The translations under genes were made by a program, and so were the position numbers. From contig OZ076418.1 of NCBI GenBank assembly GCA_964187785.1, positions 16,554,001-16,618,000 on the forward strand: 64,000 nt of DNA, in the 5' to 3' direction. Under the pieces are notes generated by a model, which was given only the letters and a program-made list of their open reading frames with translations, searched no databases and had not been told where the DNA came from. How positions within the stretch are numbered: the first letter of the stretch is position 1; each line of letters opens with the position of its first letter. Positions 20,309 to 63,133 of the stretch are shown piece by piece. This DNA comes from Amphiscolops sp. MND2022 (Eukaryota).

Positions 20309-20468
20309 AATGTTTCTGATAACACTTAGTTGGTTTAGAGAAAGACACGACGTCACCCAGGCGCATCATGAAAACTTTCAAGAAGCTCAAGCTGGACCAG
20401 CAAGAAAAGACCGCAATCAAGAAATCCAAGGAGTGGTTTCCCTGATTCCTCATCCACAAAGGGGGGAA

Positions 20469-22731: not shown

Positions 22732-24495
22732 ATGCCTTCAACTAGAAAGCAAAAGGCCAAAGAAAGGCGCTCTAGGCAATTGGACATCATGTCCGATGTG
22801 GAAAATGTCGATATTATGCTAGGAAGTTACTCAAGGGATGGTGAGGGTAACGCTAGTGAAGATGAAATGAATTTGGACTCAGAGTCCAACAGGCTACAAC
22901 AAGGTTCAAACGTTATCGGTGAAGACTTTAGGTCTTTATTAAATACAAACAGTAGAGAAAACAGCCAGGTTACAATTGAAACCACTAGAATGATTAGTGA
23001 TGAAATATCTAACCAAGTCTCAAGAAGATTAAATGAAATCAAAACTAGCTTAAATTTCCAAATACAAGACGCAATTAGCAATGCAATCACTGAAAAAATA
23101 CTTCCGTCTATCCAAAATACGCTAGAAATGCAGGGGAGACCTAATTTCACCATGGTGGACCGAAGGTCCAACGGGCTACATCCCAGCCCAAAGTCGACCG
23201 AATTCACCATGAAGGACCAAAGGTCCAGTGGGCTACAACGGAACGCCGAAGTAGGAAATTCGCAGGAAATGGTGGAAAACCGCCCTAAAACGTGTTTTAC
23301 ACAGGAAAATGGTAGACAGATGTCTAGAGAGAGTTCAACAGACTCTATAAACAGCGAACAAAATCGCGACATGGTGACAGGAGCCAACCCTACCCCACAT
23401 ATGGTTCCTGAGTTTCTCACTGGACGTCCCATGCAATCCCGTGAACCCCTGCAACGTCGAAACTCCAACAATGACGAGTCCCAGGAAACAATCCCCCAGG
23501 TTTCTGAGACTACAGCACCTACTACTGGTTCTGACCCCATTAACCGCCTAGCTGAAGTATTGGTTGGCATGAATAACAGACCATCAGCGCAAACACTAAT
23601 GGTACGTCCTGTCAGCTCCACCACGCTGACATTTGACGGCAAGTCAGAGAAATTCGAACTTTTCGAAGATCTCTTTCACACAATGATCAAAATGCAACCA
23701 GATATGACTGAAGCCATGAAAATCAACCACTTTCATTCATTGTTACGCAAAAACGCCCTACAAACTTTTCGTAACATTAACACGGCAAACAGGCAAACCT
23801 TGGAGGACATCCTGGCAGTATTCCGCAGGAAATACGTCAAGCCTGAGTCCCAGGCGACCGCCAAACACAAATGGCACCGATTAGTGTTCGATCCAAACAC
23901 CATGAAACTGCCCGACTTCCTTGAAGAACTCAATCAAGGAGCTGAAAAAGCGTTTGGCGAGAACGCCCAGGCCATGATCGATAGCCTCCTTTATGCCAAA
24001 CTGCCGCCAAAACTGAAACGCTCAGTCAATATGGCTAGACTAGAAAATGCGACTTATGAGGAAATAGTTACTCATCTGGAAAGAGAATTAGAACTCAATG
24101 GACTTGAGGAGGGTGATGACATTCCAATCCCAACAATGTCTACGGCCCCGACAGCAACACGACCGGGTACAGGCCTTCTTTCCTCTGGAATTGACCCGGG
24201 AATTACCTGCAATTATTGCAAAAAACCAGGTCACACAAAGGATGATTGCCGCAAATTAAAAAGGAAAGAAGAACAAAAACGCAATGACGGCCAGAATACC
24301 AGAAAAGAGTATCCAAAGTGCCCGACTTGTGACAAAACGAACCACCCGGCGGAACGGTGTTGGAAAGGCGCTGGAGCCCACCTCAAACCTAAGAACCTCA
24401 AACTAGAGGACTCCAAAACTGACGACCCGTCCACTAGTAACAACGATGTCCAACACAAACAAACAACCTCTATCCTGAAAAACCCAAAAAACTAG
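22732..24495 (+). CDS. gag: Gag polyprotein of element C (587 aa)
   Basis: Capsid-like FDGKSEKFELFEDLF...INHFHSLLR region. Two CCHC knuckles CNYCKKPGHTKDDC and CPTCDKTNHPAERC. Uninterrupted. Confidence 0.93.
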   Translation: MPSTRKQKAKERRSRQLDIMSDVENVDIMLGSYSRDGEGNASEDEMNLDSESNRLQQGSNVIGEDFRSLLNTNSRENSQVTIETTRMISDEISNQVSRRLNEIKTSLNFQIQDAISNAITEKILPSIQNTLEMQGRPNFTMVDRRSNGLHPSPKSTEFTMKDQRSSGLQRNAEVGNSQEMVENRPKTCFTQENGRQMSRESSTDSINSEQNRDMVTGANPTPHMVPEFLTGRPMQSREPLQRRNSNNDESQETIPQVSETTAPTTGSDPINRLAEVLVGMNNRPSAQTLMVRPVSSTTLTFDGKSEKFELFEDLFHTMIKMQPDMTEAMKINHFHSLLRKNALQTFRNINTANRQTLEDILAVFRRKYVKPESQATAKHKWHRLVFDPNTMKLPDFLEELNQGAEKAFGENAQAMIDSLLYAKLPPKLKRSVNMARLENATYEEIVTHLERELELNGLEEGDDIPIPTMSTAPTATRPGTGLLSSGIDPGITCNYCKKPGHTKDDCRKLKRKEEQKRNDGQNTRKEYPKCPTCDKTNHPAERCWKGAGAHLKPKNLKLEDSKTDDPSTSNNDVQHKQTTSILKNPKN

Positions 24496-24497
24496 AT

Positions 24498-26168
24498 TTG
24501 CCACGACTCCAATTTAACGAAAAACTTCGTGTCCGACAATATATAATTTCAGACCCCTCAAACATATATTATACTGAATATTATACCTCTCTTAAAGAAA
24601 CATCATCAGCTGACTGGCAGCAGCAGATGAAGACTCCTCCTACCTCTCACACCAATTTGGACCCTATGTCCAACAGACTACAAAACAATACTACTACTAT
24701 ACGACTTATACCCCTTATTGATGACTATAACCCATACTACCAGGACCCAGACTATGGTTTTGACCCCTACTGGGACGCTAATTGCTACAATCAACATCAT
24801 CTATACTTCTATAGTAATTTCAACAAACCAACTCATAATAGAGAACCAGACTCTTATGAAATTGACCGAGCCTTGAATATGGTTCTTGTGAAAGCCAAGG
24901 TCGATCCATGGCAACAAGACACAACACCGAGTTCTGAAGTCATTCATACTGAGATTGACGATGAACCTCACCGTGCGGGACCACAGGTCCCACTGGCCAC
25001 AACAGTGGCTGCCCGTTTTGTAAACACCTTAATCACAAGAACAGGTGAACCAGACTATGTTCCGCTGACAACTAATCTCGGCCTCAAATACAAGCGACGA
25101 ATGCTCTATTTTCCAATGGATTTTGGCGAACTAACATTAGATGGCCTTGTAGACACGGGAGCTTTATCTAGCGCGATCCCAGAAGCTGATCTACGTAAAA
25201 TCCGATTACTAGCCCCTCAGTCAATTGTCAAAGAGGGCCCAGCCCCTGGCTTCCAAATTATGGTTGCTAATGGACAGCTGGAGACTCCAAAGAGCACCGT
25301 CGAACTGAAGTTTGAAGTCGGCGATATTGAATTTCACGAAATATTCATAGTCATGGAAAAACTCACCAGTCCATTGATTGGTCTTTCGTTCCTTCAGAGG
25401 AACAACACCATTCTGGATATGCGACAAGGTGTCCTGAATTTCCCATTCTTTTCAATGCAGTTAAAAACTGCAGACCACAAATACACAAACGTCATGGAAC
25501 CCATTTGCATTAGAGAGGATGTAACCATCCCACCTAATGACCGACACACGGTCCTCATGGCTTCACAACTGTACGAGGATACTACAGTTACCGGGATCCT
25601 TCAACCGAGCAACACCCTTACCGATGATGGCGATATTGCTTTCTGTGCTGCTCTAGTCACATTGACCAATGGTCAAGTATCTGTTCACCTGAACAACTTT
25701 ACCGACAGTCCGTATACCCTCAAAAGAGGTACACAAGTTGCTAATTTCACTGTCCTCACGCCGGAACAGATGAAATATGTCAAACCTATTGACCCAGTGA
25801 CCACCTGGCACCTTTTGCAGGACAATCCTGAAAATGCTGCTTACTACGCAAGTAGTTTGATCAAATCTACCAAACCTGAGGACTTCAAAGAAAACTACTG
25901 GTTTCCAACACCAGAGGACCCTGGGGACCCTCAGCAGCACACGCCAATCCAAAAACGGATTTTGTCAGAGCTGATCAATCTTCAGCAATTAGAAAAACTC
26001 AATCCTCAGGATGACCCTGAGTCGAGACGCCAATTCTTGTCCAATTTTGACTGGACTGACTCTATGCTACAACCTGCGGAAATAGCTCGCATAGAAGACC
26101 TACTTGTCGAGTTTCATGATATCTTTGCCAGACATCGCTTCGACATAGGTATGAACGAGGACTTCAAG
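24498..26168 (+). CDS. pol: Pol of element C, partial (aspartic protease, dUTPase-like spacer, RT N-terminus)
   Basis: LVDTGA protease motif; VTIPPN...HLNNFTDSPYTLKRGTQVA spacer; LLVEFHDIFARHRFDIG pre-RT motif. Lies in the -1 frame relative to gag and runs into the gap. Confidence 0.9.
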
Positions 26169-26368
26169 NNNNNNNNNNNNNNNNNNNNNNNNNNNNNNNN
26201 NNNNNNNNNNNNNNNNNNNNNNNNNNNNNNNNNNNNNNNNNNNNNNNNNNNNNNNNNNNNNNNNNNNNNNNNNNNNNNNNNNNNNNNNNNNNNNNNNNNN
26301 NNNNNNNNNNNNNNNNNNNNNNNNNNNNNNNNNNNNNNNNNNNNNNNNNNNNNNNNNNNNNNNNNNNN
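26169..26368. other. Assembly gap (200 N)
   Basis: Run of N. Confidence 1.
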
Positions 26369-26453
26369 TGGTTTTGTAGAAACAATGTGTAGTTGTCTCA
26401 ACGTGTAGCGGCGGAGAGCACGAGTATCGGGTAGAACTTAAACAGAACCAACG

Positions 26454-29565: not shown

Positions 29566-29789
29566 TGAAAAAAACGAACGGACATTTTTGACAACAAATA
29601 TTGAGCTCAAAAAGTGAGCTTTTTCTTGATTTTATATATTATCTGATGTTTCGAAATCAAATGTACTATATTAGTCATGACTAATATAGTACATTTGATT
29701 TCGAAACATCAGATAATATATAAAATCAAGAAAAAGCTCACTTTTTGAGCTCAATATTTGTTGTCAAAAATGTCCGTTCGTTTTTTTCA
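29566..29789. repeat. Perfect 224-bp palindrome with no spacer
   Basis: 112-bp arms are exact reverse complements about the centre TTAGTCA|TGACTAA (29677/29678). Confidence 0.97.
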
Positions 29790-32261: not shown

Positions 32262-33539
32262 ATTGTCCTTTAAAATCCACGACACACATATTTTTTACTT
32301 TCAACCCAATGTGAGGTCTCGAAATTCTTCTTCAGATTGCTGCAGTTTTGTGAAACCTTTGGTAGGAATCTTGGCGAAGAATTTGTAAAATCTTGCAAAA
32401 TCTTGCCACGGGTTTCAGGAAAAAAGTTGTGATTGCAATGAACGAAATCCGTCGCCAAATGCGGGTTGTTCTGCGTACCTATTGTGTATCAGCTGTTCAC
32501 GCTACCAGCCAAGCAATTTCAATTGAAAGTCAGGACGTGACAGCTTGGTTTGTAACGATAAGCGCTGGCGCTTGAACCGCAACGTAGAGTGGAGGAACTA
32601 GAACAGCGAATATAATCTGGGACCTAGATCTCCGCGGCCCTAGCTCATTTTCCCTCCGAAGGAGCCAGTCCCAAGGTGGGGGAACCGTCTTGTAGGACGC
32701 TCTCTGGCCTGGTCCTAGTCTGTAACTGCTAAAAGTAACAGGCATCTTGCAAGACTCAAGACCACTGCTCAACTAGCCTTTAAAAATTGGGCTGAAAATC
32801 GATGAAGGTTGAACCGTAATATTGGAGAATCTGATAAAATCGCCAAATCGAATAAACAGATGTTAAACAACAGCTCTCGAGCATATTAATCTACCACATC
32901 GAAAATACAACAAGAAATCAAGAGTTCAGAGTCATTAGATGAGAATTGACCTCAGGTTCCCAGCGCTAGCGCTAGTTGCCACACAGGATACCGCAGGGAT
33001 ACTCAGGCGAACATCTGGAACACTGGTTTCCTTTACTGTAGTAATGGATATCTCCTAGAGATTGACACAATACCGTGTTCTGTATGCGTTGGGGACGTCT
33101 TCGTAGTCGTCTCCGGTGCTTGTTCGTCGCGAGCGGCGGTTTCTGCTTTTCTGGGGTGCTTTTTCTGGCAGGTACTTCGTCTTGAGCATGTTTGAGTGCC
33201 ACGTCAAATTTGAACGAATTTTTGACAAAATTTTCTAAACATGTCGAAGTTGCAAAGTTGGTTGATATTGCTGTACCAGAGCTTGCCGTTACAGTTGGTA
33301 GCGTGAACAGCTGATACACAATAGGTACGCAGAACAAGCCACATTTGGCGACGGATTTCGTTCATTGCATTCACAACTTTTTTCCTGAAACCCGTGGCAA
33401 GATTTTGCAAGATTTTACAAATTCTTCGCCAAGATTCCTACCAAAGGTTTCACAAAACTGCAGCAATCTGAAGAAGAATTTCGAGACCTCACATTGGGTT
33501 GAAAGTAAAAAATGTGTGTCGTTGATTTTAAAGGACAAT
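32262..33539. repeat. Long inverted repeat pair (about 245-bp arms) around a 788-bp GC-richer spacer
   Basis: 32262-32507 is the near-perfect reverse complement of 33296-33539. Confidence 0.9.
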
Positions 33540-49085: not shown

Positions 49086-50462
49086 CCTACGGAACATACG
49101 GGACCTACGGAACATACCAGAACCTATGTGGTGTTTCGTATCGAACTTAATGAAATCTCTAAATAACAGTTATGATAACGTGGTCAAAAGCTACACCGAT
49201 TGTCAAAATTGAAGGTTTTTTGTTTTTGTCTCTTTTAGGTCTTTACGGATCTAATTTAAAGTCTTGAATCATATGCAGAATGTGTGCGGGTTCTTTGTTT
49301 TTCAATGAAGATCGAAGCTGTGTTTCAAATGCCAGAACACTTATACTGAGAACAAGTATTCTGGCCATTTTTCTAAAATCACGCTTCTAGATGTATTGTT
49401 TTTTCTGAAGCTTATATTTTTCGGCTTATCAACAGTTGATGATAAGTTGCGGGATGCAAGATGGCTGTAGCAAAATGCTTGCTTTGTAGTATCTTCCCGT
49501 TTCTTTAGAGAAACTGACATAACAAGTTACATTAAAATAAACAAGGGCCTTTTCAAATGCAGAAAGTTTCGTTTTTGTGATCAACGGATTAAATTGTCAG
49601 TTTATACTGCCCTTATAGAAAGAGAATAGAAAAATTTCTTCTTGCACCCAATAACAGTTATTCCAAATGAATATAGCTACTATTCTGCCCGTATAAGCCC
49701 CGAATCAGTTTTGGAGTTTTCCGTGCTTCACTTCATATGGCAGCGAATCTTCAGGATTCCCCGGGAAAGATAACAGGGTAACACAAAAGAGCCAAAGTAT
49801 ATACTCAGCGCAAAATATTTTGAAAGTATTAGCCAAGAGCTTACATGTTGTTACATGTTGTCACATATTCTGTTAACTATTGAAAGCCTTGATACGATCT
49901 GATTCATAATTACTTCACAAGAACCTGTTAAATTTCCGAAAGTGAATCTAGAGAATCTAGGTGAAGATAAATAAATAAATAAATAAATAAATAAGTCAAA
50001 TAAATAAATAACTTGCAAATCAAGCATCAATACTGTTGACAACCACTTTACTACTGTTCGCAGAATCAGCTAGCTAGACTATCAGCAATTCAAGTGTTGA
50101 ATATGTGACAACAAAAAGTATTGAATTTCAAGATCTGATAATTTGATTGCTATTCACGAGTCTGAAAACAAGTTTTAATTTCCACGAGTCCGAAAGATTG
50201 CTGAGCTCTTTTGTTGTATCTTACATGTATTAAGATACGATTTTGAAATATAGCCACTTAAAACAAGCTCGTACTAATACAATTTACAATATTTTCGAGA
50301 AAAAATAATTTGTCAGATTCGAAATGTTTGGGAGAATTTTTCTGTCAAAATTATTTTGAAATCAAAAAATTTTAAGTGGGTCAAAAATTCAAAAAACTTA
50401 AAAAATGATGTTTTCGAAATCGCTCTCGAGCAATGAAATGAGCGCGTGAGACGTTATTTAGC

Positions 50463-51176
50463 TGTAGCATACAGAGCTAAGCAAACAGGAAATGACTTTT
50501 ATATATGAATACTGCTTAATACAAATACAGTGTACACGTATACACTCTGTTGCTATATACACATCTATATATTAAAAAAAAATTAACTGCGTTGCTTAAT
50601 ATACATTGTAACAATAGGTGTGCACATTTTACTTTTTAAACAAATTTTACAAACAATTATCCAGGCAGTTCCAAGCAGTGTGCAATTTAAAAAACCTCGT
50701 GGTCGTTTCTAAAATTTCAGCTGCCTTGCAGTAATAAATATTTTGTTGAGTCTGATTCAACTTCCCCTTTTTTCAGCTGCCCCTTATTTAAAGCTGCTCT
50801 TATTATTTTATGCGCCCAATTCAGCTGCTCTTTTATTTAACATTCATCAAAAGCCCCACTCTTACCCAGTGCAGGATTAATTATTTATACGTTTCTTGCA
50901 CCTGCAGAAGTATCTTCAGAAGCAGAAAATTATCGAAGCCATAACTTCATCCATCAAGCCAAATGTAAGTTGTGTTTGTTATTTAACATTTTTGATTAGT
51001 AAAAATCGTTTTTTTAAAATTGAGTTTTCATATTCTTATAGACTTTTTTCTTGTCCTTTTTTTTAGAAATATCCACCAGTCACTTTTGAAAACAAAATAT
51101 ATCCATTTACCCTAACAATCGCCCCGCGCATCGAAAGTTGAAACGAATAGAAATCTAGTAAAAAGCGATTGTTAAA
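50463..51176 (+). repeat. 5' LTR of element D
   Basis: TGTAGC...GATTGTTAAA; direct repeat of 62028-62740. Confidence 0.95.
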
Positions 51177-51177
51177 A

Positions 51178-51195
51178 TGGTGACAGGAGTGGGAT
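51178..51195 (+). promoter_or_regulatory. Primer-binding site, tRNA-Leu-like
   Basis: TGGTGACAGGAGTGGGAT versus the tRNA-Leu(CAG/CAA)-type PBS TGGTGTCAGGAGTGGGAT (17/18, from recall). Confidence 0.75.
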
Positions 51196-52304
51196 ATTTG
51201 TAAAAAGAGAAGTTTTTTTTTACAAAAAAAATTAAAGTAACTTAGAACCCCCATCAAAACATTCTTAGTCCTAGACCCGATCCAAAAATTTTTTTTTGAA
51301 ATGTGCCATTTCCTGGTTCGCCAGTGTTGCCCATAAGATTCCCAATCCGGACATGGTCCGTGCCTAGTTTTCCAGCTCAATGCTGTGTCTTTCCGCTTCG
51401 GCGTGTCTCAGGCTTTAAAATGGCACATTTGACCCAATGTCCTTAAGTTTTAAGAAGTTACACGGTAAGTGCTTGTCATAAAACAAACAGTAGCCAATTT
51501 TTTGTAACATTTCTATCAAAATAGTTCCGTTTTCTTTTTGATAACCTAAATTCTAATAACCGCCGCGAGTTTTTTTTTGTTGATATGCCTTGTGCTCACA
51601 ATACGCATTCTCACCTACCGTTGTACGTTTTTCCCCAACGACCGCTTCGACCATCAAGTCCTCCGCCCTCTTACAGCAAAACACGTGAAAGACCGATATT
51701 CACGCCCTGTTTTTTAAGTTTTCTACTCTTGATCCTCTGTTTTGCGCTTCTCTTGACCGTTTTAGCCCTTTGTGCGATGTCGTACGAAATCAACAAGATA
51801 AATATAACTTGTAAAGCACTTCAAACCCAAAGAGTGGACTATACGTCTCTGTAGGAGCGGCCTAATGTATGCTTTTAGCATACCTGTTTCCGTTTTGTCA
51901 AACACACCGCCTCAAAACTTCGTTATTCCTTGCTACTTCTGCCAAGTGAAACTTTTCAAAATTCCATTATCGCATCAACCAGAACGTCGTTTTACGGCAC
52001 ATGAACTGTCGATTCATTTGCGTCTTGAGGCTATCCACAATTGGCAACATCGAAACGTTTGTTCAACTTTCCCGTATGGTCGTGTTGATAACAATGCAAG
52101 TGTAAAAGCTTCCTGGGCGTCCTTTTTCCCTCAATTAGCCAATATTTGGGCTTCTCATATTCAATTTCTAGCAATACACGTAACGAATCCATTCTATTTG
52201 GTCTATCCCGACTGCAAACCACCTAGTCTCAATTTTGGTCCGCTGCGAATGGATCGCATGTGAAACGTTCTAGACCTAACGTAGACTTTAAGCGTTCAAA
52301 TACA

Positions 52305-53191
52305 ATGAGCACTCAACCAAGCACCCCACAACGGCCACCTCGACAGCGGTAACCAATACTACTACAACCCCAGTTACTAGTGGTGGTGCAAGTAGCTCCC
52401 AAGCACTAGCACAAGCACCTACCGTGGGTTCTACAACTCCTAACACTAGTACAACCCCAACAGCTTCCTTTTTCACTCTGCCTGGCGGTAGACAAAACCC
52501 AACAAGTGTTCCATACATAGCCCCGCTTCCGTCATGTCTGATGCCAGAGTCTTTCACAGGAAAAGGTGATTTCGAAGATTACCTGCAACAATTTAACACA
52601 GCAGCACTTCTCTCAGGCTGGTATTCGAACGCACACGATAACAGACCACATTATTTTGCGTTGCGATTGAGAGAAAATGCTTTGCCTGGAGATTGAGAAC
52701 GGAAACCCCCAAGCCGCTCAAACAGTTAACTGAGTTAGTACTTCTTCTGAAGCGGAGCCATCAGCGTCCAAAATTATGGCTGATTTTGTTCGATCATTAC
52801 AAACTGAACTTCAGTCGTCAACGTATCGGTCCAATAATGATTTCCATCAACGAGGAGACACAAAATCATCAAACAAAAATGATCACTCGAGATCGCAGAG
52901 TAATGATTCCAATCGGAGTGGCCAGTCAGTACGATTTCAGTCGTCACAAGGACGCGAACGACCAAATAACGCAGGCAGATCTGACAAAACACAAAAACAA
53001 CAGTATCGCCAAGATTCCCCCATCCCAAGAAACAAGGCAACAATAACAACACGCAAAACAATCGGAAGCCGTGCGAGCGTTGCACACGCAAAAATCATAC
53101 AACGAAGGAGTGCAAAGCTTGTTTCAATTGTTTGAGAGTCGGTCATTTCCAGAATGAATGCAAGGCTCCCAAAAGGAAACATTTAAACTAG
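52305..53191 (+). pseudogene. gag of element D (internally deleted, frameshifted)
   Basis: PESFTGKGDFEDYLQQF capsid start truncated at about 52685. CCHC knuckle CFNCLRVGHFQNEC near 53118. TAG at 53189. Confidence 0.8.
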
Positions 53192-56100
53192 AAATGTCTA
53201 CGCTACCGGGTCAGAGCGCAGACAAGACCACAAACCGAGGCCCACAAATTCAGACTCTTAACTCTGTGGTGGATCACAGAAGTGTATTTGTCCAATTATC
53301 TATTTTTAATACGGTGATTGAGGCTGTGTGTGATAGTGGAGCAAGTGTATCTTGCCTGAGTTCTGATGCATTTGGGAAATTGAAGAACGGGAAGAAATTA
53401 GAGCTAAAACCGTCAGACACGAAGCTAGTAGCAGCCAACAAACAACCTATAGTAACACGCGGCATTGTGCAACTACCTTTGCAAATCGGTCCGAGACATT
53501 ACGAACATGCGTTTCACGTTCTGGAGCAAGCAGAAGCTGACTGTCTACTCGGCTTAGACTTCCTTAGAACTCATAAATGTGACCCGTTGTTTTCCCAAGA
53601 TATACTGCGTCTTGATGAAAAGACGACAGTCCCCCTGTATCATCGTCAGCTCACTGACGCTACGACAACAGTGTTCCGAGTGGTGGTGTCGGAGACAGTT
53701 TCGGTACCGCCAAGACATACAATGATAGTGCCTGCGCACATCAAGGACTGGAAACGCCCAATGAATGAGGGTGTAGCAATTTTCGAGCCGCACGAACGGT
53801 TCGATGGCTGTAAAGATGCAGTGGCCCCAAGCATTTTGTTCAACATCGGTGAAGAAAACATCCCGGTAACGATAGAAAACTCCGGAGAAGAGCCACTAAT
53901 ATTGAATGAGAAGACGACTTTGGGTACTTCAGAAGTAGTTCCTGATTTACCCATACAAAATATAGTAACCGAAACAAAAAGCTTGAAGTCTAAAATAGAC
54001 GAAAAAGACGAATCGTACGATTTGAAAAACGTCGTGGATGGAGTTAGCCCGGAAATTCCATTCAAAGTAAAACAGAAATTTGCAGAACTTGTTTACGAGT
54101 TCGAAGATGTGTTTTCGCAAAACCAATGGGACATTGGTCGTTGCGAAGCCACAACACACAAAATAAACTTATACCCAGGATCAAAGCCGATTAAAATTCC
54201 CAATCGAAGAATGCCTCTCCACTATAAACAGGATCTCCAAGAGAAATTAGATGCTTTTCTGGACAAGGGATTGATAGCTCCTTGTCATAGCCCCTACAGT
54301 GCTCCAGCCATGCTAGTCCCGAAGAAAAACGGCAAACTCCGCCTGGTCATTGACTATAGGCAATTGAACAGTCAAACAATCAAGTCGTGCTGGCCAATCC
54401 CATCGATTGAAGAAAATTTCGATACTCTAGATGGAAGTTCTGTCTTCTCCACTATAGACATGAGTTAGGGATTCTACCAGTTGCCCCTAGACGAAACCAG
54501 TCAAGAGTATACTGCTTTCAGCACGCCGTTTGGTTCCTTCAAATGGCTTGTAATGCCGATGGGACTCACGAACAGTCCACCGACGTTCCAAAATTTAATG
54601 GAAATCGTTTTGGCGAAACTTATCTGGAAAACAACAGTCCCCTACCTTGACGATTGTATCATCATTGCCGCTTCACCGGAGGAACACTTAGAACGAGTAA
54701 GGGAAGTTCTAGGCAGATTTAGACAAGCCAACTTGAAAATAAACCCCCTAAAATGTGAATTTTTTCGCAACAAAGTCCACTTCTTGGGCCATGTCATCAG
54801 CAAAGAAGGCCTTCAAGTTGACCCCACAAAAATTGCAGTTGTTAAAGAGTTTCCGGTCCCAATTAACCAGACACAGGTGAAGTCATTCTTGGGCCTTTGT
54901 TCCTACTATAGACGTTACATCAAAAATTTCGCTGAAATTGCTCGTCCCTTGCATAAAGCGAGTGAAACCAACTCGCCTTTTAAGTGGACAACCGAGGCAG
55001 AGCAAGCGTTTGAAGATCTAAAAGCACGACTCCTCACAACACCAATTTTAGCCTTCCCAACAATGGAAGATCCTTTCATCCTCTACACGGATGCCAGCCA
55101 ACTAGCAATGGGAGCCGTTCTAGCCCAAATACAAAATGGCCAGGAACGTGCTATTTGCTATGCATCAAAGGCATTCTCCAAATCCCAATCAAAGTACTCA
55201 GTGACGAAACGAGAACTTCTGGCAATGGTCCACTTCACTCGGTACTTCCGACATTACCTACTCGGAAGAAAATTCAAAATTGTCACAGACCATAGTGCAC
55301 TTCGCTGGTTACACAATTTCAAGGAACCCGACGGTCTCATTGCACGGTGGATTGAAAAACTAGCAGCTTTCGATTACGAAGTGCAACATAGACCAGGCAA
55401 ATCTATCGGACATGCCGACAGTCTGTCCAGAATACCACTTGAATCCGTCCAATTAACGCAAGAATGCCGAACAGGAGTCCCAGGTGCAACAAAAATGAAG
55501 AATTGCAACAATGACGAGGAGTGGCCCAACGCACAATCTAACTACAGTGTTCATCTATTGCCTAGAGATACAGCATCAATACCACTCCAAGCTGTCATTG
55601 AACTCAACGAAAAAACTAATATTCACAGCAAAGACAAAACCGGCGATCTTCTCGAACATGAGCAACCACAAGAAAAGCCTCTACAAGAAGAACTAGTCAT
55701 TACAGAAACAGGGATTGTCAAGTATCGCGAGGTGAAGGGCGATTTGTTCAGTTCTTCTGAGTCCCTAGCTCACTGTATCTCAGCTGATTTTAAAATGAGT
55801 TCTGGAATAGCCTGATCATTCAAAAGGAAGTTCCCAGCACAGTATCCAGAGGACATATCGAAGCAAACTGTGCCACTTTGGGTACAACCGCTACCTGAAG
55901 ACGGCCGTTTCCTGTATCACTTGCTGACTAAAGAACGTTACTACCAAAAGCCAACCTATACTTCACTTCGAGCTTCCCTGGAACACATGCGTAGCCATGC
56001 TGAAACGAACAACGTCCTAAACAATTAGTATGCTTCAAATCGGCTGTGGAATTGATAACCTTGAATGGGATTTGGTTCGCAGACTTATCCGAGAAGTCTT

Positions 56101-58099
56101 TGACGGATCCAATGTTTGTATAACTATTTACTTGCCTCCATCGATTTCACTTGGTCGCAAAGACCCAGCCGTAGTAACCGCCAATGATACCGATCCAGTG
56201 CATACGGACATTGATGTCCGCAATGCTCAAGATGAGGACGAGGCCTTGCAGATCGTGAAAGAATGGGTTCGTAAGGGTCGTGTGCCGCGGAATAACGACC
56301 TACAAGGCACTCCCGAATTAGCATGGAAACTTTATAATCAGTTCTACAGTCTATATCTGGTCAATGACGTCCTTTGTCGAAGGTATGAACCAGTTGGAGG
56401 TGAACTCCCGCACCTACAGCAAATTGTTCCTTGTGCCTTGGTAGAAACTATCCTAACAAACTTGCACTCTTCCGCTACCAGTGGACATCTAGGCCTAGCC
56501 AAGGTAATGGAGAAAGTTCTACAGCGTTTTTGGTGGCCCGGTTTCAAAGAAGATATTAAGCTTTTCATAAAACGTTGTTCCGAATGTCAGCGACGTTCAA
56601 ATCCTCCGAAAACTCATCGTCACTCCCTCGTAAAGTGGAAGGCTAGTTACCCTTTTCACCACATTGGAATCGATTTCATGGGCCCACTGCCGGTGTCAAA
56701 TGGAAATAAAGTAATTTTGTTGATCGGGGATCATTTTACAAAATGGTATGAGGCAATACCTTGGCTGATCAGCAAGCAACAACAACAGCTACTGCTCTTA
56801 TCGAACATTGGATCTGTCGATTTGGTTGTCACTACAGTATACACAGTGACCAAGGATGTAACTTTGAATCCAAGTTGTTCCAGACTCTCATGGCAAGCCT
56901 CCATATTGACAAAACAAGAACAACTGCTTTTAGACCCCAATCTAATGCAGTGATTGAGCGAATGAATCGAACACTCCAGAACATGCTAGCAAAGTGTGTA
57001 AACGCTGAACAAAGCAACTGGTCCCAACAATTACCGTACGTGATGATGGCCTACCGGTCATCTGTACATGAATCAACCGGATATTCGCCTCAATTTCTTG
57101 TACATGGGCGAGAGATCTCCTTGCCAATCGATTTGATGTACCCTGTACCTGAAACCGAGGAACCGATGTCTACTACTGATTTTGTATACCATCGAAAATT
57201 GGCCTTCCAAAAAGCGTTTGAACTACTGCGAGCCAACATTAATAAAAACCAGAAACGTCGCAACGCCATTTACAACGAAAAGATCCATGGCCCTACCTAC
57301 GAACAGGGACAGAAAGTGTTGCTCCACACACCAGTGGTCCCAGTTGGTCAAACAACCAAGTTTCACAACCCATGGCGTGGTCCATATGTGATACTTGACT
57401 GTTTCAATGATGTCACATACAAGATAGGAGAATTGACTACGTCCAAAGAACTAGATTGTTCATTACGATAGATTGAAGCCTTACTACGAAAAACCAGCCA
57501 CGTCAAATGTTCCTACAAGAAATATAAACCTTCCACAACCCAATACACCAGTCCAATCCAACGTTCCTACACGGAATATCGATTTGACTTCAACAATACC
57601 CGAAACCTCGCATAAATGTTGTATGCATTTTCAACAGCCACCGCTGCAGCCTGTGAACCTCCACAGTCCTCCTCATCAGAATCAACAGATCACTCTCACA
57701 CCACAATCAAACCGCCACAATGCTCAGTTACCGACCCAAACTCCAACTCCCGCTTCCATCTCTGGTAACCAGCGCTCTCAAACTTTCCAATCTCCTGGCG
57801 TTCAGACAATGGCCACTCCCGAAACTCCTTCAGTCGACAGCCCTAGTTATCGTTAAGCTCCAACATTCCATTGACTTCTGTCCAACGAACACCGAAACAT
57901 CGTTGAAAACGCCGCTGTTCAATTTCAAGATATGACAAACATACCATACAATCTCCGCGCAAGTACACGCACACAGCGATTGGCGGAACCCCTGTGTAAT
58001 TCTTCAATACCTTCTGAGCTGACTGACTTCAACTCACCGCCACAGCACAGCAAACCGCATTCCACCAAACGTTTCACAAATTATACAAAAAAGAAATAA
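53182..58099 (+). pseudogene. pol of element D (PR, RT, RNase H, macrodomain, integrase, tail)
   Basis: CDSGA; LRLVIDYRQLN; FSTIDMS*GFYQ; YLDD; LYTDAS; HSS..SGHLG..WWPG..CSEC; IDFMGP; HSDQG; ERMNRTL; WRGPY. Stops at 54466 and 55813; frameshifts near 56020, 56762 and 57455. Confidence 0.93.
55717..56131 (+). pseudogene. TARG1/OARD1 (Poa1p-like) macrodomain embedded in Pol
   Basis: VKGDLF...SLAHCISADFKMSSGIA*SFKRKF...YHLLTKERYYQKPTYTSLRASLEHMRSHA...ISMLQIGCGIDNLEWDLVRRLIREVF...ITIY follows the TARG1 motif pattern over its full length. Confidence 0.92.
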
Positions 58100-58180
58100 C
58101 TTGAAATAGTCGCTTTTCCTTTCGTTCTCCTGTTCTTTTCCCATCACCAATGGCCTAACAAGGCTCCTCTGTTTTTCAGG

Positions 58181-60526
58181 ATTTCCTACTTTCCAAACTC
58201 TCAACAATTGTGGTTCCTCTTTCTGTTCGTCCGTTGGTCGGTCCTGATCTTTGCGGATGTGCAGTTCACAACACACCTCAACGATGACCTGGAAAAACAC
58301 GTATTCAAAAAAGGTGCAGCGTTTGTGTTCAAATACCAAGCTGTTACCTCGGAAAGTGAAAGCAAAGTCCGTGTGTTCTCTCCCTTCCCCAAGATGCCTC
58401 AAATCAACATTACCAATGCCATTAACATGATCAATGCCTTCCAGACAGCCCCTCGAAGCATCGGGGGCATGTACATCAATACTAATTGCAAGTTTACAGA
58501 AGTTAATGACACGTATGACCTCCTCCTGCAACAACTTATGACAAGAGTCAATTTCCTGCAAACAGAATTGGCGGCAGATCAACAAGAGGAAGACACTCTT
58601 CTGGAAGTTGTGAACTCTTTTATTCCGCCAGCTGTTAGACAATCTGATGACATCGTTCGACCACGTCGAGCAATTGCCGCTATTGCTGCAATCGCGGCGG
58701 GTGCCGGAATGGTCTTGGGCGAACCCATCAAAGACGCCGCTTGTAGCGCCCTTTCTATATTTAACCTCTGTCACACCAATGAAGATCTGAGTCGCGATGT
58801 GGAACGCATAATGAATACACAGCAAGAAATTGTTGATACACTGCAGCGTGTTCAAACTCGAAATGACAAGAATTTCTTCCTGCTCGGAAACGAGATTAAA
58901 CAGACCCAGGAAAGTGTCCAGAAGTTGAAAGAAAGTGTCGGTCTCCGCTTCCAACAAATGGAGTTTTACCTAGTTAATGCTACTCGCTACTTGGCTGCGA
59001 CTAGCCTTGATTGTGATAAAGTGATTATTCGCCATCTTAGCCTTCAGCAATTCTTGAGAAATTACGTCTATCAGCTAGGGACACTTTATACTCATCTCAA
59101 GTCCTACCGTGCAGCGTTTTACGCTTACCGCATTTCGCTCTACTCCACCATTTCCTCGTTAGCTAGTGGCTACATTACACCTCAGTTTCTTCTGCCTCAA
59201 CAAGTGGCGCAAATTGTCAAAGACTTAGCAGATGACGAAGTAAAGCGAGGCACCAAACTGTCCCCAGCTATTCGACCTGGTTTCGAGGCAATTTACTATG
59301 AGATACAATTAGTACTCGAAGTAACTTTGATACCACGTGGTATATCTGTCATACTCGGGATCCCCATGAACTCAAAATCGTCGACGTTTGACATTTACCA
59401 TGCTACGTCTCTGTATCAGCCCAACAATGACCAGAAAACTGCGTCGCTCTTCAATTTTGCGAACCCTTTTTTGGCAGTATCTACTGACAATAGTAGATTT
59501 GCAGAGCTCGGTGCTAATACGCTGCAGCAATGTTCGGGCAACAATCGTATCAAATTATGTAGAAAAGGCTTCTCAACAACAACCGATGAAACTCTTCTTT
59601 GCTTAGGATCCTTGTTCTATAACTACGATGTTCCCGCCTTACGCAATTGCGAAGTCCGCGCAGTACTTTTACCCGACGCTCCTCAGGCTTTTTATTTGGC
59701 GGATGGGATGTACCACGTCATATCACGGTCTCCCACCCTCAAATTCAAAAACGATAGCCAAATTGACGGCCTTTCTATCTCTACTATCACCTGTCAGGCG
59801 TGTGTCATACGCCCTAGCTGTTCGAGTACACTGTCTTTCAACCAGGGTGAACTGGTTCTTCATCCTGACATGGATTTTTGCGAGACCCGGCCGGAGCCTT
59901 TTCTTGCGTCGATTGAGTTGACACCGTCTTTGAATCAAGTCTTCGCGCATGTACCCGCCATTGGTAGCGCCGAATTTCAGGCATATTCTACTAGTGAAGC
60001 TCGTCAGTCGGTTCTTGGCAGTCTACGAATGGAACTAGCCGAACTACTTGACGTCCAACACATGTCGCCGGAAACTTTAGATCAACTGACAGAGCCAATC
60101 GCCAAATATTATTCTTCGATCTCGCCGGCCACATCCGCAGCTTTACAGTCTTATTTACACACACGTACTGCTTTTTTACTTTCGTCATTGTCAATCACAA
60201 TGTCTCTTTTAACGTTTTCTATAAGTTTTACTTTGTTTAGACGTCATTGGCAGCGTCTCTTTACAAATCCTCAACGCTTTTTCCGAGCTACTTCCGGTAG
60301 ATTTATTAATATAGTCGAATCTATGACCCCGGAGTATGATTTGACCGGTTCTTCATTTTTGTATTTGACGGACGCTGAATTCCGTGCACTGATTTTGCTG
60401 GCTCGTGAAACAATTCGTCAGGCTGAACCGAAACCATCCAATTACACTGCACCCAACGTCCCTACACTTCCACCACGTGTTTATCCTAATATTAGTGCGT
60501 CAACTTATGAGTCTACTTCGACGTGA
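58181..60526 (+). CDS. env: Envelope glycoprotein, class I (F-type) fusogen-like; probably expressed by splicing
   Basis: Hydrophobic N-terminal signal. Furin site RPRR (58658-58669) followed by the Ala/Gly/Ile fusion peptide AIAAIAAIAAGAGMVLG. Heptad region, Cys-rich domain, N-glycosylation sequons, TM near 60170-60238 and a cytoplasmic tail. No stops. Confidence 0.88.
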   Translation: MSYFPNSQQLWFLFLFVRWSVLIFADVQFTTHLNDDLEKHVFKKGAAFVFKYQAVTSESESKVRVFSPFPKMPQINITNAINMINAFQTAPRSIGGMYINTNCKFTEVNDTYDLLLQQLMTRVNFLQTELAADQQEEDTLLEVVNSFIPPAVRQSDDIVRPRRAIAAIAAIAAGAGMVLGEPIKDAACSALSIFNLCHTNEDLSRDVERIMNTQQEIVDTLQRVQTRNDKNFFLLGNEIKQTQESVQKLKESVGLRFQQMEFYLVNATRYLAATSLDCDKVIIRHLSLQQFLRNYVYQLGTLYTHLKSYRAAFYAYRISLYSTISSLASGYITPQFLLPQQVAQIVKDLADDEVKRGTKLSPAIRPGFEAIYYEIQLVLEVTLIPRGISVILGIPMNSKSSTFDIYHATSLYQPNNDQKTASLFNFANPFLAVSTDNSRFAELGANTLQQCSGNNRIKLCRKGFSTTTDETLLCLGSLFYNYDVPALRNCEVRAVLLPDAPQAFYLADGMYHVISRSPTLKFKNDSQIDGLSISTITCQACVIRPSCSSTLSFNQGELVLHPDMDFCETRPEPFLASIELTPSLNQVFAHVPAIGSAEFQAYSTSEARQSVLGSLRMELAELLDVQHMSPETLDQLTEPIAKYYSSISPATSAALQSYLHTRTAFLLSSLSITMSLLTFSISFTLFRRHWQRLFTNPQRFFRATSGRFINIVESMTPEYDLTGSSFLYLTDAEFRALILLARETIRQAEPKPSNYTAPNVPTLPPRVYPNISASTYESTST

Positions 60527-60599
60527 TTTAATTGCTTTGCACAATTCTGTCTCACTGTCAATTTCAGCTTCTTTATCAACTACTTAAGATGTCCCTTTT

Positions 60600-60790
60600 C
60601 CTAGTTGCTTCCTTAAGCAGCTAGTGCCTGTTTTACACATTTCCGTGTTACTTACTTTCCTCTAGGTTGCCTTTTCCTTCCTAGTTGCTTCACTACGCAG
60701 CTAGTGCCTGTTTTGATACACGTTTCCGTGTTGAATACTTTTCCGCTAGGTGCATTTTCTCCTAGTTGCTTCGCTACGCAACTAGTGCCT
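60600..60790 (+). repeat. Three about 80-bp repeats, each with a CTAGTTGC...GCA(G/A)CTAG hairpin
   Basis: Unit starts at 60600, 60680 and 60761. Confidence 0.85.
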
Positions 60791-60916
60791 AACAACACAC
60801 GTTTCGGTATCCGCAATTAAGTTTCAAACAATTAGTGCCTAGCAGATGCGTTTCCGCATCATATAGGATTTTCGTACACAGTGTAATCGGTGCAATCATT
60901 TTTTTGTTGTTTCAGG

Positions 60917-61987
60917 TTCCAGTTTCCAGCAGCCCCAGTGCCAGCGCCCTTCCTCCTCAGCAGCGGCCGCGTGCAGCCTCTAGCCGAGGGATATGTGGTC
61001 CGCCTGTTAGACAAAGATGACTATCGCGTCAAGAGAATAAACCCAGCAACACAAACAGTCGTACTACAAAAAATAAATTCAACCAATCGTTGCTTTGCTC
61101 GACCGGCTACGGAAATCTGGCTTCCTCCCCCAAGCAGTACCAGCCTGAGCGTGGAAGTGGACTGTCCTCCCCCTCCAGCAATTTGTGATTGCTCGCCAGT
61201 ACCTCCTAAATTAATCGTGGACACCTGCGATGTTGCGGTGGATGCGTCCCTCGACGCCGATGACAGCATGGAACTCTTAGTCTCAGAATTTGCATCGGTT
61301 GGCGAACTCAATAAGGGTTTTGAAGAAGCCCGAGCAAATGCTAACAAGGCACGCATCGAGTGTGAGCATACATTCGACCTCCTTTGCGAGGAAATGACTC
61401 TTCGGAAGGCAAAAGAAAACGAACTTCAAACAGCAACACTCGAGCTCTCTGCTCTACAAACCAACATTGCTTCTCAAGTCGTCGCCCTCGCCGAAAAAGA
61501 CAGCGAAATAGCAGCCCTGAAGACGCGCCTTAGTGCCCTAAGCGACGAAAACAGCTCTTTGCTCCAACACAGTCTGCAGCAAAGCGAAGAACTCTCTAAC
61601 CTTAAACTTGCCGCCAACAGGGTTTCAGATGCCCATCTAACTACAGAAATGCTAATCCATCAGCTGTCAACATATGCAATTGACCTGGATTTCAATGATG
61701 ACAACCTGTTCTTCGATGTCCTCGGACTGACACCAACCTCAGATGTTACCAAGATAAACATTTATGCTCGGCATCTCCTGCGCCTGGTCCACCCCGACAA
61801 GAATCGATCCATTCCAGCAGATGTCGCCCAACTTATTCCTTGCCTCAAAGAAGCTAAGAGCATCCTCACCGATCCCCAATTGAATAAAATATATCAATGT
61901 TGCGGTATGTCAGGTGTCCGCCGGGCTCGTCGCAAACTACGGACTTGCATGGATTGCGACTCCCATATGTCAGACTGGTTCGAATAA
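60917..61987 (+). CDS. Accessory ORF: coiled coil plus C-terminal DnaJ-type J-domain
   Basis: FFDVLGL...INIYARHLLRLVHPDKN...LKEAKSILTDPQLNKIY (61703-61905; HPD at 61790-61798). Heptad-rich segment at about 61305-61620. ORF is open and ends just before the PPT. The 5' end is uncertain (splice acceptor at 60915, or ATG near 61268). Confidence 0.85.
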   Translation, partial: FQFPAAPVPAPFLLSSGRVQPLAEGYVVRLLDKDDYRVKRINPATQTVVLQKINSTNRCFARPATEIWLPPPSSTSLSVEVDCPPPPAICDCSPVPPKLIVDTCDVAVDASLDADDSMELLVSEFASVGELNKGFEEARANANKARIECEHTFDLLCEEMTLRKAKENELQTATLELSALQTNIASQVVALAEKDSEIAALKTRLSALSDENSSLLQHSLQQSEELSNLKLAANRVSDAHLTTEMLIHQLSTYAIDLDFNDDNLFFDVLGLTPTSDVTKINIYARHLLRLVHPDKNRSIPADVAQLIPCLKEAKSILTDPQLNKIYQCCGMSGVRRARRKLRTCMDCDSHMSDWFE

Positions 61988-62027
61988 ATTGGCTGGCGAG
62001 GACGCAGCCTCACACGGGGGAGGGCAG

Positions 62028-62740
62028 TGTAGCATACAGAGCTAAGCAAACAGGAAATGACTTTTATATATGAATACTGCTTAATACAAATACAGTGTAC
62101 ACGTATACACTCTGTTGCTATATACACATCTATATATTAAAAAAAAATTAACTGCGTTGCTTAATATACATTGTAACAATAGGTGTGCACATTTTACTTT
62201 TTAAACAAATTTTACAAACAATTATCCAGGCAGTTCCAAGCAGTGTGCAATTTAAAAAGCCTCGTGGTCGTTTCTAAAATTTCAGCTGCCTTGCAGTAAT
62301 AAATATTTTGTTGAGTCTGATTCAACTTCCCCTTTTTTCAGCTGCCCCTTATTTAAAGCTGCTCTTATTATTTTATGCGCCCAATTCAGCTGCTCTTTTA
62401 TTTAACATTCATCAAAAGCCCCACTCTTACCCAGTGCAGGATTAATTATTTATACGTTTCTTGCACCTGCAGAAGTATCTTCAGAAGCAGAAAATTATCG
62501 AAGCCATAACTTCATCCATCAAGCCAAATGTAAGTTGTGTTTGTTATTTAACATTTTTGATTAGTAAAAATCGTTTTTTTAAAATTGAGTTTTCATATTC
62601 TTATAGACTTTTTTCTTGTCCTTTTTTTAGAAATATCCACTAGTCACTTTTGAAAACAAAATATATCCATTTACCCTAACAATCGCCCCGCGCATCGAAA
62701 TTTGAAACGAATAGAAATCTAGTAAAAAGCGATTGTTAAA
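62028..62740 (+). repeat. 3' LTR of element D
   Basis: Direct repeat of 50463-51176, followed by TSD TAGC. Confidence 0.95.
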
Positions 62741-63133
62741 TAGCCAATGAGATTTGTTTATTTGCTTTCTTCCGTCTTTGTTGCTTTTAATAATATCACT
62801 ACTGTAGTTATTTTGCAACTTCATCCAGGTATTTACCTAAAATTAACTATTCTGCGCGTCAAACGAACGAGTCCCATGGAATAGTAAATTTAAATAACTA
62901 GTAACAAAAACTCGAAAAAACGAAAGTCTATTTCAGTTAAATACTTTGGCACAAATAAGACATTCCAATAATTTTTAATTACCGAGTAGCAAAAAGTTTT
63001 TCGCTTATTTAGATGACTTCATTCATTACATGAAATTTTATTTGTGCAAGATTAGTTTTTGAACTCATGGGAATTAAAATTAATTTTCGGACTCGTGATC
63101 TTGTGGACTCGTGGGAAGACGCCAGTAGTTTGG

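Follow-up and report, generated by a model that had tools for sequence, protein, structure and literature searches.

A recently mobile Ty3/Gypsy family in Amphiscolops sp. with a macrodomain in Pol, an F-type env and a J-domain gene

Does a retroelement that carries a macrodomain, an envelope gene and a J-domain gene represent a family with that gene content or a single copy with chance captures, and what might such genes do for it? The question is raised by a 12.3-kb Ty3/Gypsy provirus at 50463..62740 (+) of a 64,000-nucleotide stretch of the Amphiscolops sp. MND2022 genome (assembly GCA_964187785.1, contig OZ076418.1, positions 16,554,001 to 16,618,000), here called the window (Table 1). We find that this copy is a defective member of a Ty3/Gypsy (Metaviridae) family that has seven genes and was recently mobile, and the architecture of that family, its conservation across subfamilies and the selection on its extra genes can be read directly from its copies. 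Our overall reading, to which we give a probability of roughly 0.62, is that of a complex-retrovirus-like Ty3/Gypsy family in which the macrodomain, env, the J gene and two leader ORFs (ORF-A and ORF-B) are expressed and function as proposed below.

Table 1. Features of the provirus, in window coordinates.
Feature	Position	Strand	Remarks
Left target-site duplication	50459..50462	+	4 bp, TAGC; flank comparison
5' LTR	50463..51176	+	714 bp; ends TG...AA; single AATAAA at 50733
Predicted splice donor in LTR	50963..50970	+	AT then GTAAGT; AT = first two start-codon bases
Primer-binding site	51178..51195	+	18 nt, complementary to host tRNA 3' end
ORF-A	51585..51854	+	89 aa; proline-rich N-part with PPPSY (PPxY), then strongly hydrophobic helix
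ORF-B	51865..52263	+	132 aa; soluble, family unassigned, conserved CxxC
gag	52305..53191	+	broken; 332-bp deletion near 52684; one-base shifts near 52323 and 53016
Slippery heptamer	53182..53191	+	immediately 5' of gag stop; predicted -1 frameshift to pol
pol (PR-RT-RNase H-macro-integrase)	53158..58099	+	broken; stops near 54466 and 55813; one-base shifts near 56021, 56756 and 57452
TARG1-like macrodomain	55717..56137	+	between RNase H and integrase; one stop and one frameshift here
F-type env exon	58180..60526	+	open here
RPRR furin site in env	ends at 58669	+	
J-protein exon	60916..61987	+	open here
HPD motif of J-domain	61790	+	
Polypurine tract	62016..62027	+	
3' LTR	62028..62740	+	713 bp
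Right target-site duplication	62741-62744		TAGC; flank comparison

The first-pass annotation had described one unit bounded by a target-site duplication with LTRs about 99.5% identical, and this was borne out: TAGC is found on both flanks and the LTRs are 99.4% identical, with 4/714 aligned columns differing (three substitutions and one indel). In the two other copies compared, the LTR pairs differ at 2/685 and 1/520 columns. The tRNA primer site, polypurine tract and short target duplication accompany the LTRs as Ty3/Gypsy hallmarks, and Pol follows the Ty3/Gypsy order of protease, RT, RNase H and integrase. The primer tRNA was assigned as an intron-containing tRNA-Leu(CAA), the anticodon being assigned by eye, and would prime reverse transcription; its 3' end has 1,206 matches in the genome versus 0 for a reversed control. 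The single tRNA locus taken scored 49.7 bits for the Rfam tRNA family, and ARAGORN called no tRNA there. The RT-RNase H of a sister copy has yeast Ty3 as its nearest solved relative (E 7e-83), followed by the next entry at 5e-57 and retroviral RTs at 2e-34 or weaker; in this similarity ranking, which is not a tree, Ty3 stands nearer to the RT of the element than retroviral or caulimoviral RTs do.

Pfam searches of the window ORFs recognized an aspartyl protease, RT, RNase H, an integrase zinc finger and DnaJ, and both sister gag sequences scanned (2/2) matched Retrotrans_gag and zf-CCHC. The module order proposed earlier holds in that protease, RT, RNase H, macrodomain, integrase, env and J are all present, but gag and pol are not intact here, and the earlier gene list overlooked the two conserved ORFs upstream of gag. 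Every lesion that we located in the window copy falls in gag or pol, leaving env, J, ORF-A and ORF-B with open frames. The slippery heptamer at the end of gag is kept in 19/20 sister copies, and full-length LTR RNA would be translated into Gag and, by a predicted -1 frameshift, into Gag-Pol.

How env and J are expressed is suggested by their start codons. The J ORF has no start codon of its own in 20/20 copies, nor does env in 14/14 copies of the window copy's subfamily, and in exactly these cases (20/20 and 14/14) the acceptor phase would complete an ATG, versus 5/204 background frames. The LTR donor is kept in 19/20 sister 3' LTRs from both subfamilies, and its 10-mer is confined to the two LTRs within the 64-kb window. 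We infer that splicing from this single donor to env and J acceptors would yield both mRNAs and create their start codon. The second subfamily differs: its env carries a Met of its own, and the acceptor there does not complete an ATG. Readthrough from pol to env is disfavored: in the window copy's subfamily env is in frame with the preceding pol stop, but it lies in a different frame in the second, and splicing is therefore preferred. A similar device is described for Drosophila elements of the springer subclade, in which env RNA is spliced onto an upstream AU dinucleotide that opens the frame (Senti et al., 2025; PMC12992720). Although the springer/gypsy insect ERVs share the spliced Env RNA and AU start, one donor apparently serves both env and J in the element described here, and the available sections of that account mention neither a macro nor a J gene (PMC12992720).

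To establish what belongs to the family, we compared 20 sister copies from two subfamilies. All 20 carry protease-RT-RNase H-macro-integrase, an F-type env and a J-domain ORF, with macro, env and J in fixed order; as the copies were chosen from the env and J match tables, the macro count alone is independent of that choice, and nearly identical copies do not amount to separate observations. Among the matches listed, 47/52 env loci have a J-ORF match within 6 kb downstream, 39/52 have a macro match upstream, and 31/52 have macro, J and ORF-B together, while 25/71 J loci lack a listed env upstream (scoring covered only 56 of the 841 env candidates). More distant subfamilies have env near 55–60% identity in the match tables. 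Between the two subfamilies, compared for rates as a single pair, synonymous sites are saturated in 8/11 regions and the seven ORFs are all open. Estimates of dN/dS were 0.08 for env and 0.11–0.15 for J within the subfamily, and 0.09 for the macrodomain and 0.14 for ORF-B between subfamilies (one pair each), values that indicate purifying selection on env, J and the macrodomain. Within the subfamily, ORF-A and ORF-B show zero synonymous changes and few replacements, and so give no support for selection.

These results bear on whether macro, J and the leader ORFs ride along neutrally or were captured by chance, as the broken macrodomain of the window copy might suggest. We consider this very improbable indeed, given frames that stay open across subfamilies despite saturated synonymous sites and a gene order fixed in 20/20 copies. 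For macro, env, J and ORF-B, the passenger reading is refuted by conservation together with dN/dS; for ORF-A, the case against it consists of one between-subfamily comparison and the open frames. Chance capture in one copy, which the first-pass annotation had named as its own possible undoing, is ruled out by the 20/20 copies, purifying selection and co-occurrence at the listed env loci, and the modules are therefore family traits.

RNA viruses reverse host ADP-ribosylation with macrodomains, and the macrodomain in Pol had first been read in that light. Its TARG1-like nature was confirmed in sister copies, where the domain matches human TARG1/C6orf130 structures at E 2e-34. Both sister macrodomains scanned match Pfam Macro (2/2), and neither of the two pieces of the broken window domain does (0/2). 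The domain was found in 20/20 sister copies, with the catalytic Lys kept in 20/20 and the Asp in 19/20, and the equivalent residues are present in 72/75 and 71/75 related Pol macrodomains. In TARG1, which removes ADP-ribose from DNA, this pair is K84 and D125 (PMC9967889). The RNA-virus comparison was overstated: by sequence family and catalytic Lys/Asp, the sister-copy domain belongs to the TARG1/DarG (ALC1-like) class, its window counterpart being broken, and the solved structures closest to it are of cellular proteins. It shares the ALC1-like macrodomain and catalytic residues with human TARG1/OARD1 (PDB 2EEE, 4J5Q) and bacterial DarG but, unlike them, is embedded in a Pol polyprotein, an arrangement common to many related Pol proteins. 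In an unrooted tree, the retroelement copies fall on one side of a well-supported branch (100/99) and ten cellular-type sequences on the other.

The macrodomain would be an active ADP-ribosyl hydrolase that enters the particle with Pol and strips host ADP-ribose marks off element proteins or cDNA. We consider such counter-defense somewhat probable and give the remaining weight to repair-type housekeeping at integration, in which the domain, like TARG1 in DNA repair, would remove the ADP-ribose that PARPs attach to DNA ends or proteins while reverse transcription and integration proceed. That role, which we rate as a serious but lesser possibility, fits a domain that adjoins integrase, is closest among solved structures to human TARG1 and DarG-class proteins, and resembles an enzyme known to undo DNA ADP-ribosylation (PMC9967889). 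Against it stands another family, abundant in this genome, in which an intact macrodomain lies behind gag and protease in a 6,459-nt unit with no RT or integrase frame (one locus taken), and both macrodomain motifs are kept in 14/14 of its proteins. Retention of the domain without RT or integrase suggests a role not tied to an element's own integrase. If counter-defense is correct, a family that keeps this enzyme without RT or integrase would point to ADP-ribosylation as a standing anti-retroelement defense in the host.

The env product has a signal-like stretch, the furin site (kept in 19/20 copies), a fusion-peptide-like stretch, heptad helices, a membrane anchor and a cytoplasmic tail, and this post-pol F-type/gB-type layout of signal peptide, furin site, fusion peptide and anchor is that of an errantivirus-like env. 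A single-sequence search of the PDB with the env ORF gave no match, and no Pfam fusion-protein family exceeded its cut-off, Baculo_F falling just below (23.0 vs 24.1). Against the PDB, the structure model (mean pLDDT 78) matched the F proteins of RSV and Nipah virus with a best E of 4e-6, at a low TM of query of 0.19–0.28; against predicted viral folds, it matched baculovirus F and glycoproteins of the chuvirus type with a best E of 4.5e-20. On this model, Env is classed as an F-type fusogen. The earlier description of a furin-cleaved class I fusogen thus stands for the furin motif and the F-like predicted fold, while cleavage and fusion are predicted activities.

Env would act as a furin-activated class I fusogen that carries particles between cells, most likely from soma to germ line, and we infer that the family may form infectious enveloped particles. 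Alternatively, the family might spread within cells only, and env and the extra genes might persist on other grounds, for example because they benefit the host or interfere with competing elements. The confinement of lesions to gag and pol in the window copy fits host retention, and would equally fit chance or mobilization in trans. We regard intracellular spread as improbable, since copies are dispersed in the genome with near-identical LTR pairs, env is 96–97% identical over 12 full-length sister copies and constrained as strongly as RT, and 7/20 copies have pol, env and J all intact.

Env itself has many relatives (765 matches at E 0.001 or better), and its presentation as an unusual accessory module was overstated because F-type env is widespread among animal Ty3/Gypsy elements, as described for 1,512 env-carrying elements ('errantiviruses' in the wide sense) by Chary and Hayashi (eLife 2026; PMC13524379). 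Those elements share the LTR-gag-pol-env order, an F-type env that has a furin site and a fusion peptide, a tRNA primer site and multi-copy recent animal insertions, but their RNase H-integrase bridge contains pseudo-RNase H or mini domains (PMC13524379). Word searches found no 'macro', 'DnaJ' or 'J domain' in the text of that paper and no 'DnaJ', 'OARD' or 'TARG' in its seven supplements; 'macro' occurs at 10 places in the supplements, and the 4 of these that were displayed are species names. The scope of the study was gag, pol and env, so extra ORFs were possibly left unannotated.

The coiled-coil/J-domain ORF was confirmed as such. The protein comprises a small N-terminal beta region (low confidence), a 120-residue coiled coil, a C-terminal J-domain and a Cys-rich end. 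Pfam DnaJ matches the window ORF over cut-off (E 7e-8), a profile search of the PDB gave matches from E 6e-7, and the predicted fold agrees with a J-domain (Z 9.3, rmsd 2.4 over 74 residues); the N-terminal part was scarcely covered by the fold search, and an Atlas search with the J protein gave scores all under 0.8. With a J fold and HPD between helices II and III, it belongs with class C J-domains. It is divergent, with 21–29% identity to solved J-domains and, in the alignment, fewer basic residues in helix II than DnaJC5. Outside the family, 10 related proteins have 42–96% identity (ENA records).

Polyomavirus T antigens recruit Hsc70 by HPD J-domains, and by analogy the J protein would dimerize via its coiled coil and bring Hsp70 to an element or host complex, which on this sequence evidence we think is on balance the probable function. 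A competing view is that it serves as a scaffold, decoy or nuclear-export factor instead of an Hsp70 activator, with the coiled coil and N-terminal part doing the work. Helix II is indeed divergent, the N-terminal part is conserved like the J-domain between subfamilies (60% vs 59% identity), and a spliced genome requires export of unspliced RNA, a task that the Cer1 CERV is described as performing in C. elegans (PMC10309623). We nonetheless find this rather unlikely given the confirmed fold and an HPD kept in 20/20 copies and in the relative P0009 at 49% identity, although it is lost in 2/13 full-length rows of alignment A5. Virus-encoded J-domains with HPD occur in a baculovirus J domain protein and giant-virus DnaJ (database matches), as in polyomavirus T antigen, and the baculovirus protein also pairs its J-domain with a coiled coil. 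The J-domain of the element is C-terminal, unlike that of the viral proteins, and viral matches are confined to the J-domain and therefore do not establish a common origin with the element's J protein.

Of the two leader ORFs, ORF-A has no Pfam match, a hydropathy peak of 3.06, and 45–48% identity in the second subfamily, where it is stop-free in 8/8 rows with the PPxY motif kept. It would be a small membrane protein, and it is plausible, if still short of an even chance, that PPxY acts in budding or in down-regulation of a host membrane protein. ORF-B has no usable match in Pfam or the Atlas; it is 54–57% identical and stop-free in 8/8 second-subfamily rows and 32–39% identical in more distant copies. 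It might be a regulatory protein that possibly exports unspliced RNA, an assignment we consider speculative. MDG1-group elements likewise have two small ORFs before gag, one with a transmembrane helix, but lack env, and their sORF2 is a myristoylated FAST-like fusogen (PMC11952523). At 89 aa with one helix, ORF-A fits the size (63–107 aa) and topology of sORF2/FAST-like proteins (PMC11952523). Compared by description, it differs in having PPxY, accompanying a full env and lacking an N-terminal MG motif: MGxxxS/T is absent from 4/4 leaders examined, all of which start MPC.

Accessory genes are a hallmark of complex vertebrate retroviruses, whereas, to our knowledge, descriptions of Gypsy elements seldom go beyond gag and pol plus, at the most, env or a small ORF or two. 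Three separate accessory genes together with env and a Pol-captured enzyme, all conserved, would show that Metaviridae independently reached similar complexity. The first-pass label of a complex retroelement was in this respect understated, as ORF-A, ORF-B and the predicted splicing plan add to that complexity. More tentatively, the family may represent a new lineage of infectious animal viruses within Ty3/Gypsy whose complexity parallels that of complex retroviruses. Its env and accessory mRNAs would be alternatively spliced from one LTR donor, and it would encode a packaged TARG1-type enzyme that counters ADP-ribosylation by the host, a J protein that recruits Hsp70, a membrane protein with PPxY and a regulatory protein. 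The macrodomain would permit a direct test of animal ADP-ribosylation against retrotransposons, and the J protein would offer a handle on retroelement use of host chaperones.

Parts of this gene content are already known, namely env-bearing Gypsy elements across animals and macro ORFs in fish ERVs. In literature searches whose coverage left out most subscription papers as well as the catalogs Repbase, Dfam and GyDB, we found no report of a macrodomain in Gypsy Pol, of an LTR element with a J-domain gene, or of macro, F-type env and J in combination. Basta and colleagues reportedly described macro domain ORFs in teleost epsilon-like endogenous retroviruses in 2009. Such ORFs in fish endogenous retroviruses are likewise a case of a retroelement with a captured macrodomain, but in Retroviridae as opposed to Metaviridae (PMC4977317). 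Oikopleura Tor elements are also non-insect LTR elements with env, and env of Tor3b/4b uses an internal promoter, in contrast to the splicing predicted here (PMC4402516). Bdelloid LTR elements also capture enzyme ORFs (ORF3 types), and those named are a GDSL esterase, a DEDDy exonuclease and a dUTPase, one ORF3 at a time (PMC5408684).

Most of what the first-pass annotation described as a single LTR-bounded Gypsy unit with macrodomain, F-type Env and J-domain modules holds in the window copy (C10:16554001-16618000 of the 1.07-Gb assembly gives the window). The LTRs are near-identical and duplicate-flanked, with a primer site directly past the left LTR and a purine tract ahead of the right one, and Pfam families follow the expected order of protease, RT, RNase H, integrase and DnaJ. 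However, gag and pol are broken, and this copy is defective: in gag, 332 bp are deleted and two one-base shifts occur, and pol has three such shifts and no fewer than two stops, with one stop and one shift falling within the macrodomain. The one-base shifts may be assembly errors. Env, the J ORF and the leader frames ORF-A and ORF-B are open. A sister copy's RT-RNase H has yeast Ty3 as its nearest relative among solved structures. Over 18 nt the primer site complements the end of a host tRNA (1,206 genome matches; reversed control, 0); the single match fetched is an Rfam tRNA with anticodon CAA (Leu) by eye, for which ARAGORN made no call. The same tRNA 3′ end also lies in long tandem arrays, and the one array unit read holds a tRNA-Leu(CAA)-like gene with an intron.

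Coordinates of the element, of related repeats in the host genome (G000) and of other repeats in the window
Feature	Position	Remarks
LTR pair	50463-51176; 62028-62740	mismatched in 4/714 columns; identical four flanking bases
ORF-A	51585-51854	89 aa
ORF-B	51865-52263	132 aa
env exon	58180-60526	
J exon	60916-61987	
Primer-tRNA arrays	G000:C8:35595871-35636393; C11:5996586-6011546	
Gag-protease-macro locus	G000:C8:49495600-49502400	
J-domain match pairs (examples)	C4:53678460 + C4:53679544; C3:17356350 + C3:17357449; C8:5386700 + C8:5387791	
Decayed tandem J-ORF-related repeats	G000:C12:47298629-47302951; C8:55925479-55933223; C5:40871705-40877551	
Direct repeat pair	10871-11170; 13456-13755	99% identical, 2,585 nt apart, internal 58-65-nt subrepeats
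Decayed/truncated Gypsy-like elements	14640-20661; 22726-26408	frames resembling gag, protease and RT, judged by eye
Perfect hairpin	29566-29789	112 nt, loopless
Inverted repeat pair	32284-33519	224 nt, 788 nt apart, MITE-like

The macrodomain, env and J gene are modules of the family rather than captures by one copy. The J ORF has 138 genome matches (identity 96% down to 27% outside the window) and env at least 69 (56 of 841 candidates scored). From these match tables we sampled 20 copies over the pol-to-3′-LTR part, 14 close to the window copy (env 92–97%) and six from a second subfamily (env ~75%), and every one of the 20 shows PR-RT-RH-macro-IN followed by env and then J. Ten of them have an unbroken pol, and seven an unbroken pol, env and J. 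Hand-merging the match-table rows, with 97 macro rows taken as another family's left out, gave 52 env, 71 J, 58 ORF-B and 53 macro loci among the matches listed. Among the listed env loci, 47 of 52 have J downstream, 39 a macrodomain upstream, 37 both and 31 ORF-B as well; env is listed upstream at 46 of the 71 J loci. Partial LTR pairs in two further copies differ at only 2/685 and 1/520 columns, and therefore both subfamilies were mobile recently. Comparison of 60916–62740 with sister copies gives signs of recombination inside the family: one copy pair has a synonymous distance of 0.57 in the J ORF against 0.16 in env, and the LTRs split into two types (98–99% and 90–91%).

The sampled copies share a putative expression strategy. 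A slippery heptamer precedes the gag stop in 19/20 copies. No Met stands at the start of the conserved frame of J, in either subfamily, or of env in the window copy's own subfamily. Each of these frames opens at an acceptor rich in pyrimidines; the first base of this acceptor, joined to the LTR's AT before a consensus donor (19/20 LTRs), would form ATG. Such an acceptor occurs at J in 20/20 copies and at env in 14/14 of the own subfamily, compared with 5/204 background frames; second-subfamily env has its own Met. The donor lies 3′ of the LTR's AATAAA and so would occur at the RNA 5′ end only. From these sequence features, we infer that splicing from the LTR donor supplies the start codon of both env and J. 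The env start of the Drosophila springer subclade is made alike (PMC12992720).

Env has hydrophobic stretches at its start, past an RPRR site and close to its end, with six N-glycosylation sequons and 12 cysteines, and the furin site is retained in 19/20 copies. A profile of 53 sequences matches a solved fusion protein (E 5e-6). The env model (pLDDT 78) finds pneumovirus and paramyxovirus F, with low TM-scores, as well as baculovirus F and chuvirus-type and lispivirus glycoproteins. F-type env is widespread in Gypsy elements across animals (PMC13524379), so this part of the element was already known.

The macrodomain of a sister copy matches human TARG1 (E 2e-34). Equivalents of K84 and D125, the catalytic residues of TARG1 (PMC9967889), are retained in 20/20 and 19/20 copies. 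Judged by sequence matches, this family does not stand alone in having a macrodomain in Pol: among the best 120 longer proteins listed in a macro-profile search, 77 also match a family for RT, RNase H or integrase and 14 match protease only (hand count), and 75 Pol macrodomains among relatives retain Lys in 72 and Asp in 71. An unrooted tree was built with 39 cluster representatives, which stand for 101 of 121 proteins (17 unlabelled and three short ones excluded). It separates 27 Pol and two gag-protease domains from 10 cellular-type domains with branch support 100/99; a single old capture may lie behind the retroelement macrodomains. For endogenous retroviruses of fish, ORFs with a macro domain have been reported (PMC4977317, citing Basta 2009).

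A second high-copy family, about 97 of the 150 macro match rows listed, has a 6,459-nt unit encoding one 836-aa protein, in which a gag-like region and an aspartyl protease are joined by a TARG1-like macrodomain that is intact; the unit is bounded by repeats that are either LTRs or tandem units. No RT or integrase frame was found in the unit at the one locus read. This family is probably non-autonomous, having retained the macrodomain past loss of its replication enzymes. That an abundant family encodes an intact macrodomain without such a frame favours a macrodomain role separate from integration.

In the model of the J protein, a low-confidence beta region at residues ~30–64 and a helix of 120 residues precede a J-domain at the C-terminus; this J-domain aligns to ERdj5 (Z 9.3, rmsd 2.4 over 74 residues). 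All 20 copies retain HPD. Beyond the host genome the protein has 10 relatives, and matching to viral J proteins is confined to the J-domain. Many further J-domain matches, unrelated to the element, form pairs ~1.1 kb apart at dispersed sites across the genome and may belong to a further repeat family that carries two J-domains. Decayed tandem repeats related to the J ORF also occur.

ORF-A and ORF-B, absent from the first-pass annotation, both lie between the primer site and gag. ORF-A has a hydrophobic helix and a PPxY, a late-domain-type motif. Family matches were sought for both and none obtained. In the second subfamily both are open in 8/8 table rows (45–48% and 54–57% identity, respectively), and ORF-B is detectable in more distant copies at 32–39%. 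The layout resembles sORF1 and sORF2 of MDG1 elements (PMC11952523); unlike that layout, ORF-A has no myristoylation motif and the element here has a full env.

In a single between-subfamily pair, synonymous difference was 0.67–0.91 across 11/11 regions (eight saturated) and non-synonymous difference 0.11–0.40; dN/dS, where defined, was 0.09 for macro and 0.14 for both ORF-B and protease. Within the window copy's subfamily, dN/dS was 0.08 for env, 0.11 and 0.15 for J, 0.14 for RT-RH and, with few changes, 0.19 for macro; ORF-A and ORF-B had zero synonymous changes, and thus their dN/dS gives no information.

The set of genes and how it is conserved are direct observations; knowledge of the protein families suggests what each product may do. 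The element would most likely be a particle-forming retroelement exiting the cell via its F-type envelope and bringing several tools for coping with the host. Its macrodomain hydrolase would remove ADP-ribose marks. The J protein would be a coiled-coil adaptor recruiting Hsp70, ORF-A a small membrane protein with its late-domain-type motif, and the remaining accessory protein a regulator. Precedents exist singly for env, for enzymes captured in Pol and for small leader ORFs, and two of the three modules first proposed are precedented. The element stands out from routine ones by its J gene, by both additional ORFs and by a start codon made by shared splicing. No paper on a J-domain gene within an LTR element, and no account of the whole combination, was found in the literature searched, a collection that takes in few subscription papers and not the repeat catalogues Repbase, Dfam and GyDB. 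The text of the 1,512-element survey of env-bearing elements (PMC13524379) does not mention macro or J domains, and the 4 of 10 occurrences of "macro" read in its supplements are species names.

Elsewhere in the window, the direct repeat pair probably represents either a tandem duplication or a small element of LTR type, and the second Gypsy-like element terminates in a 200-N run.
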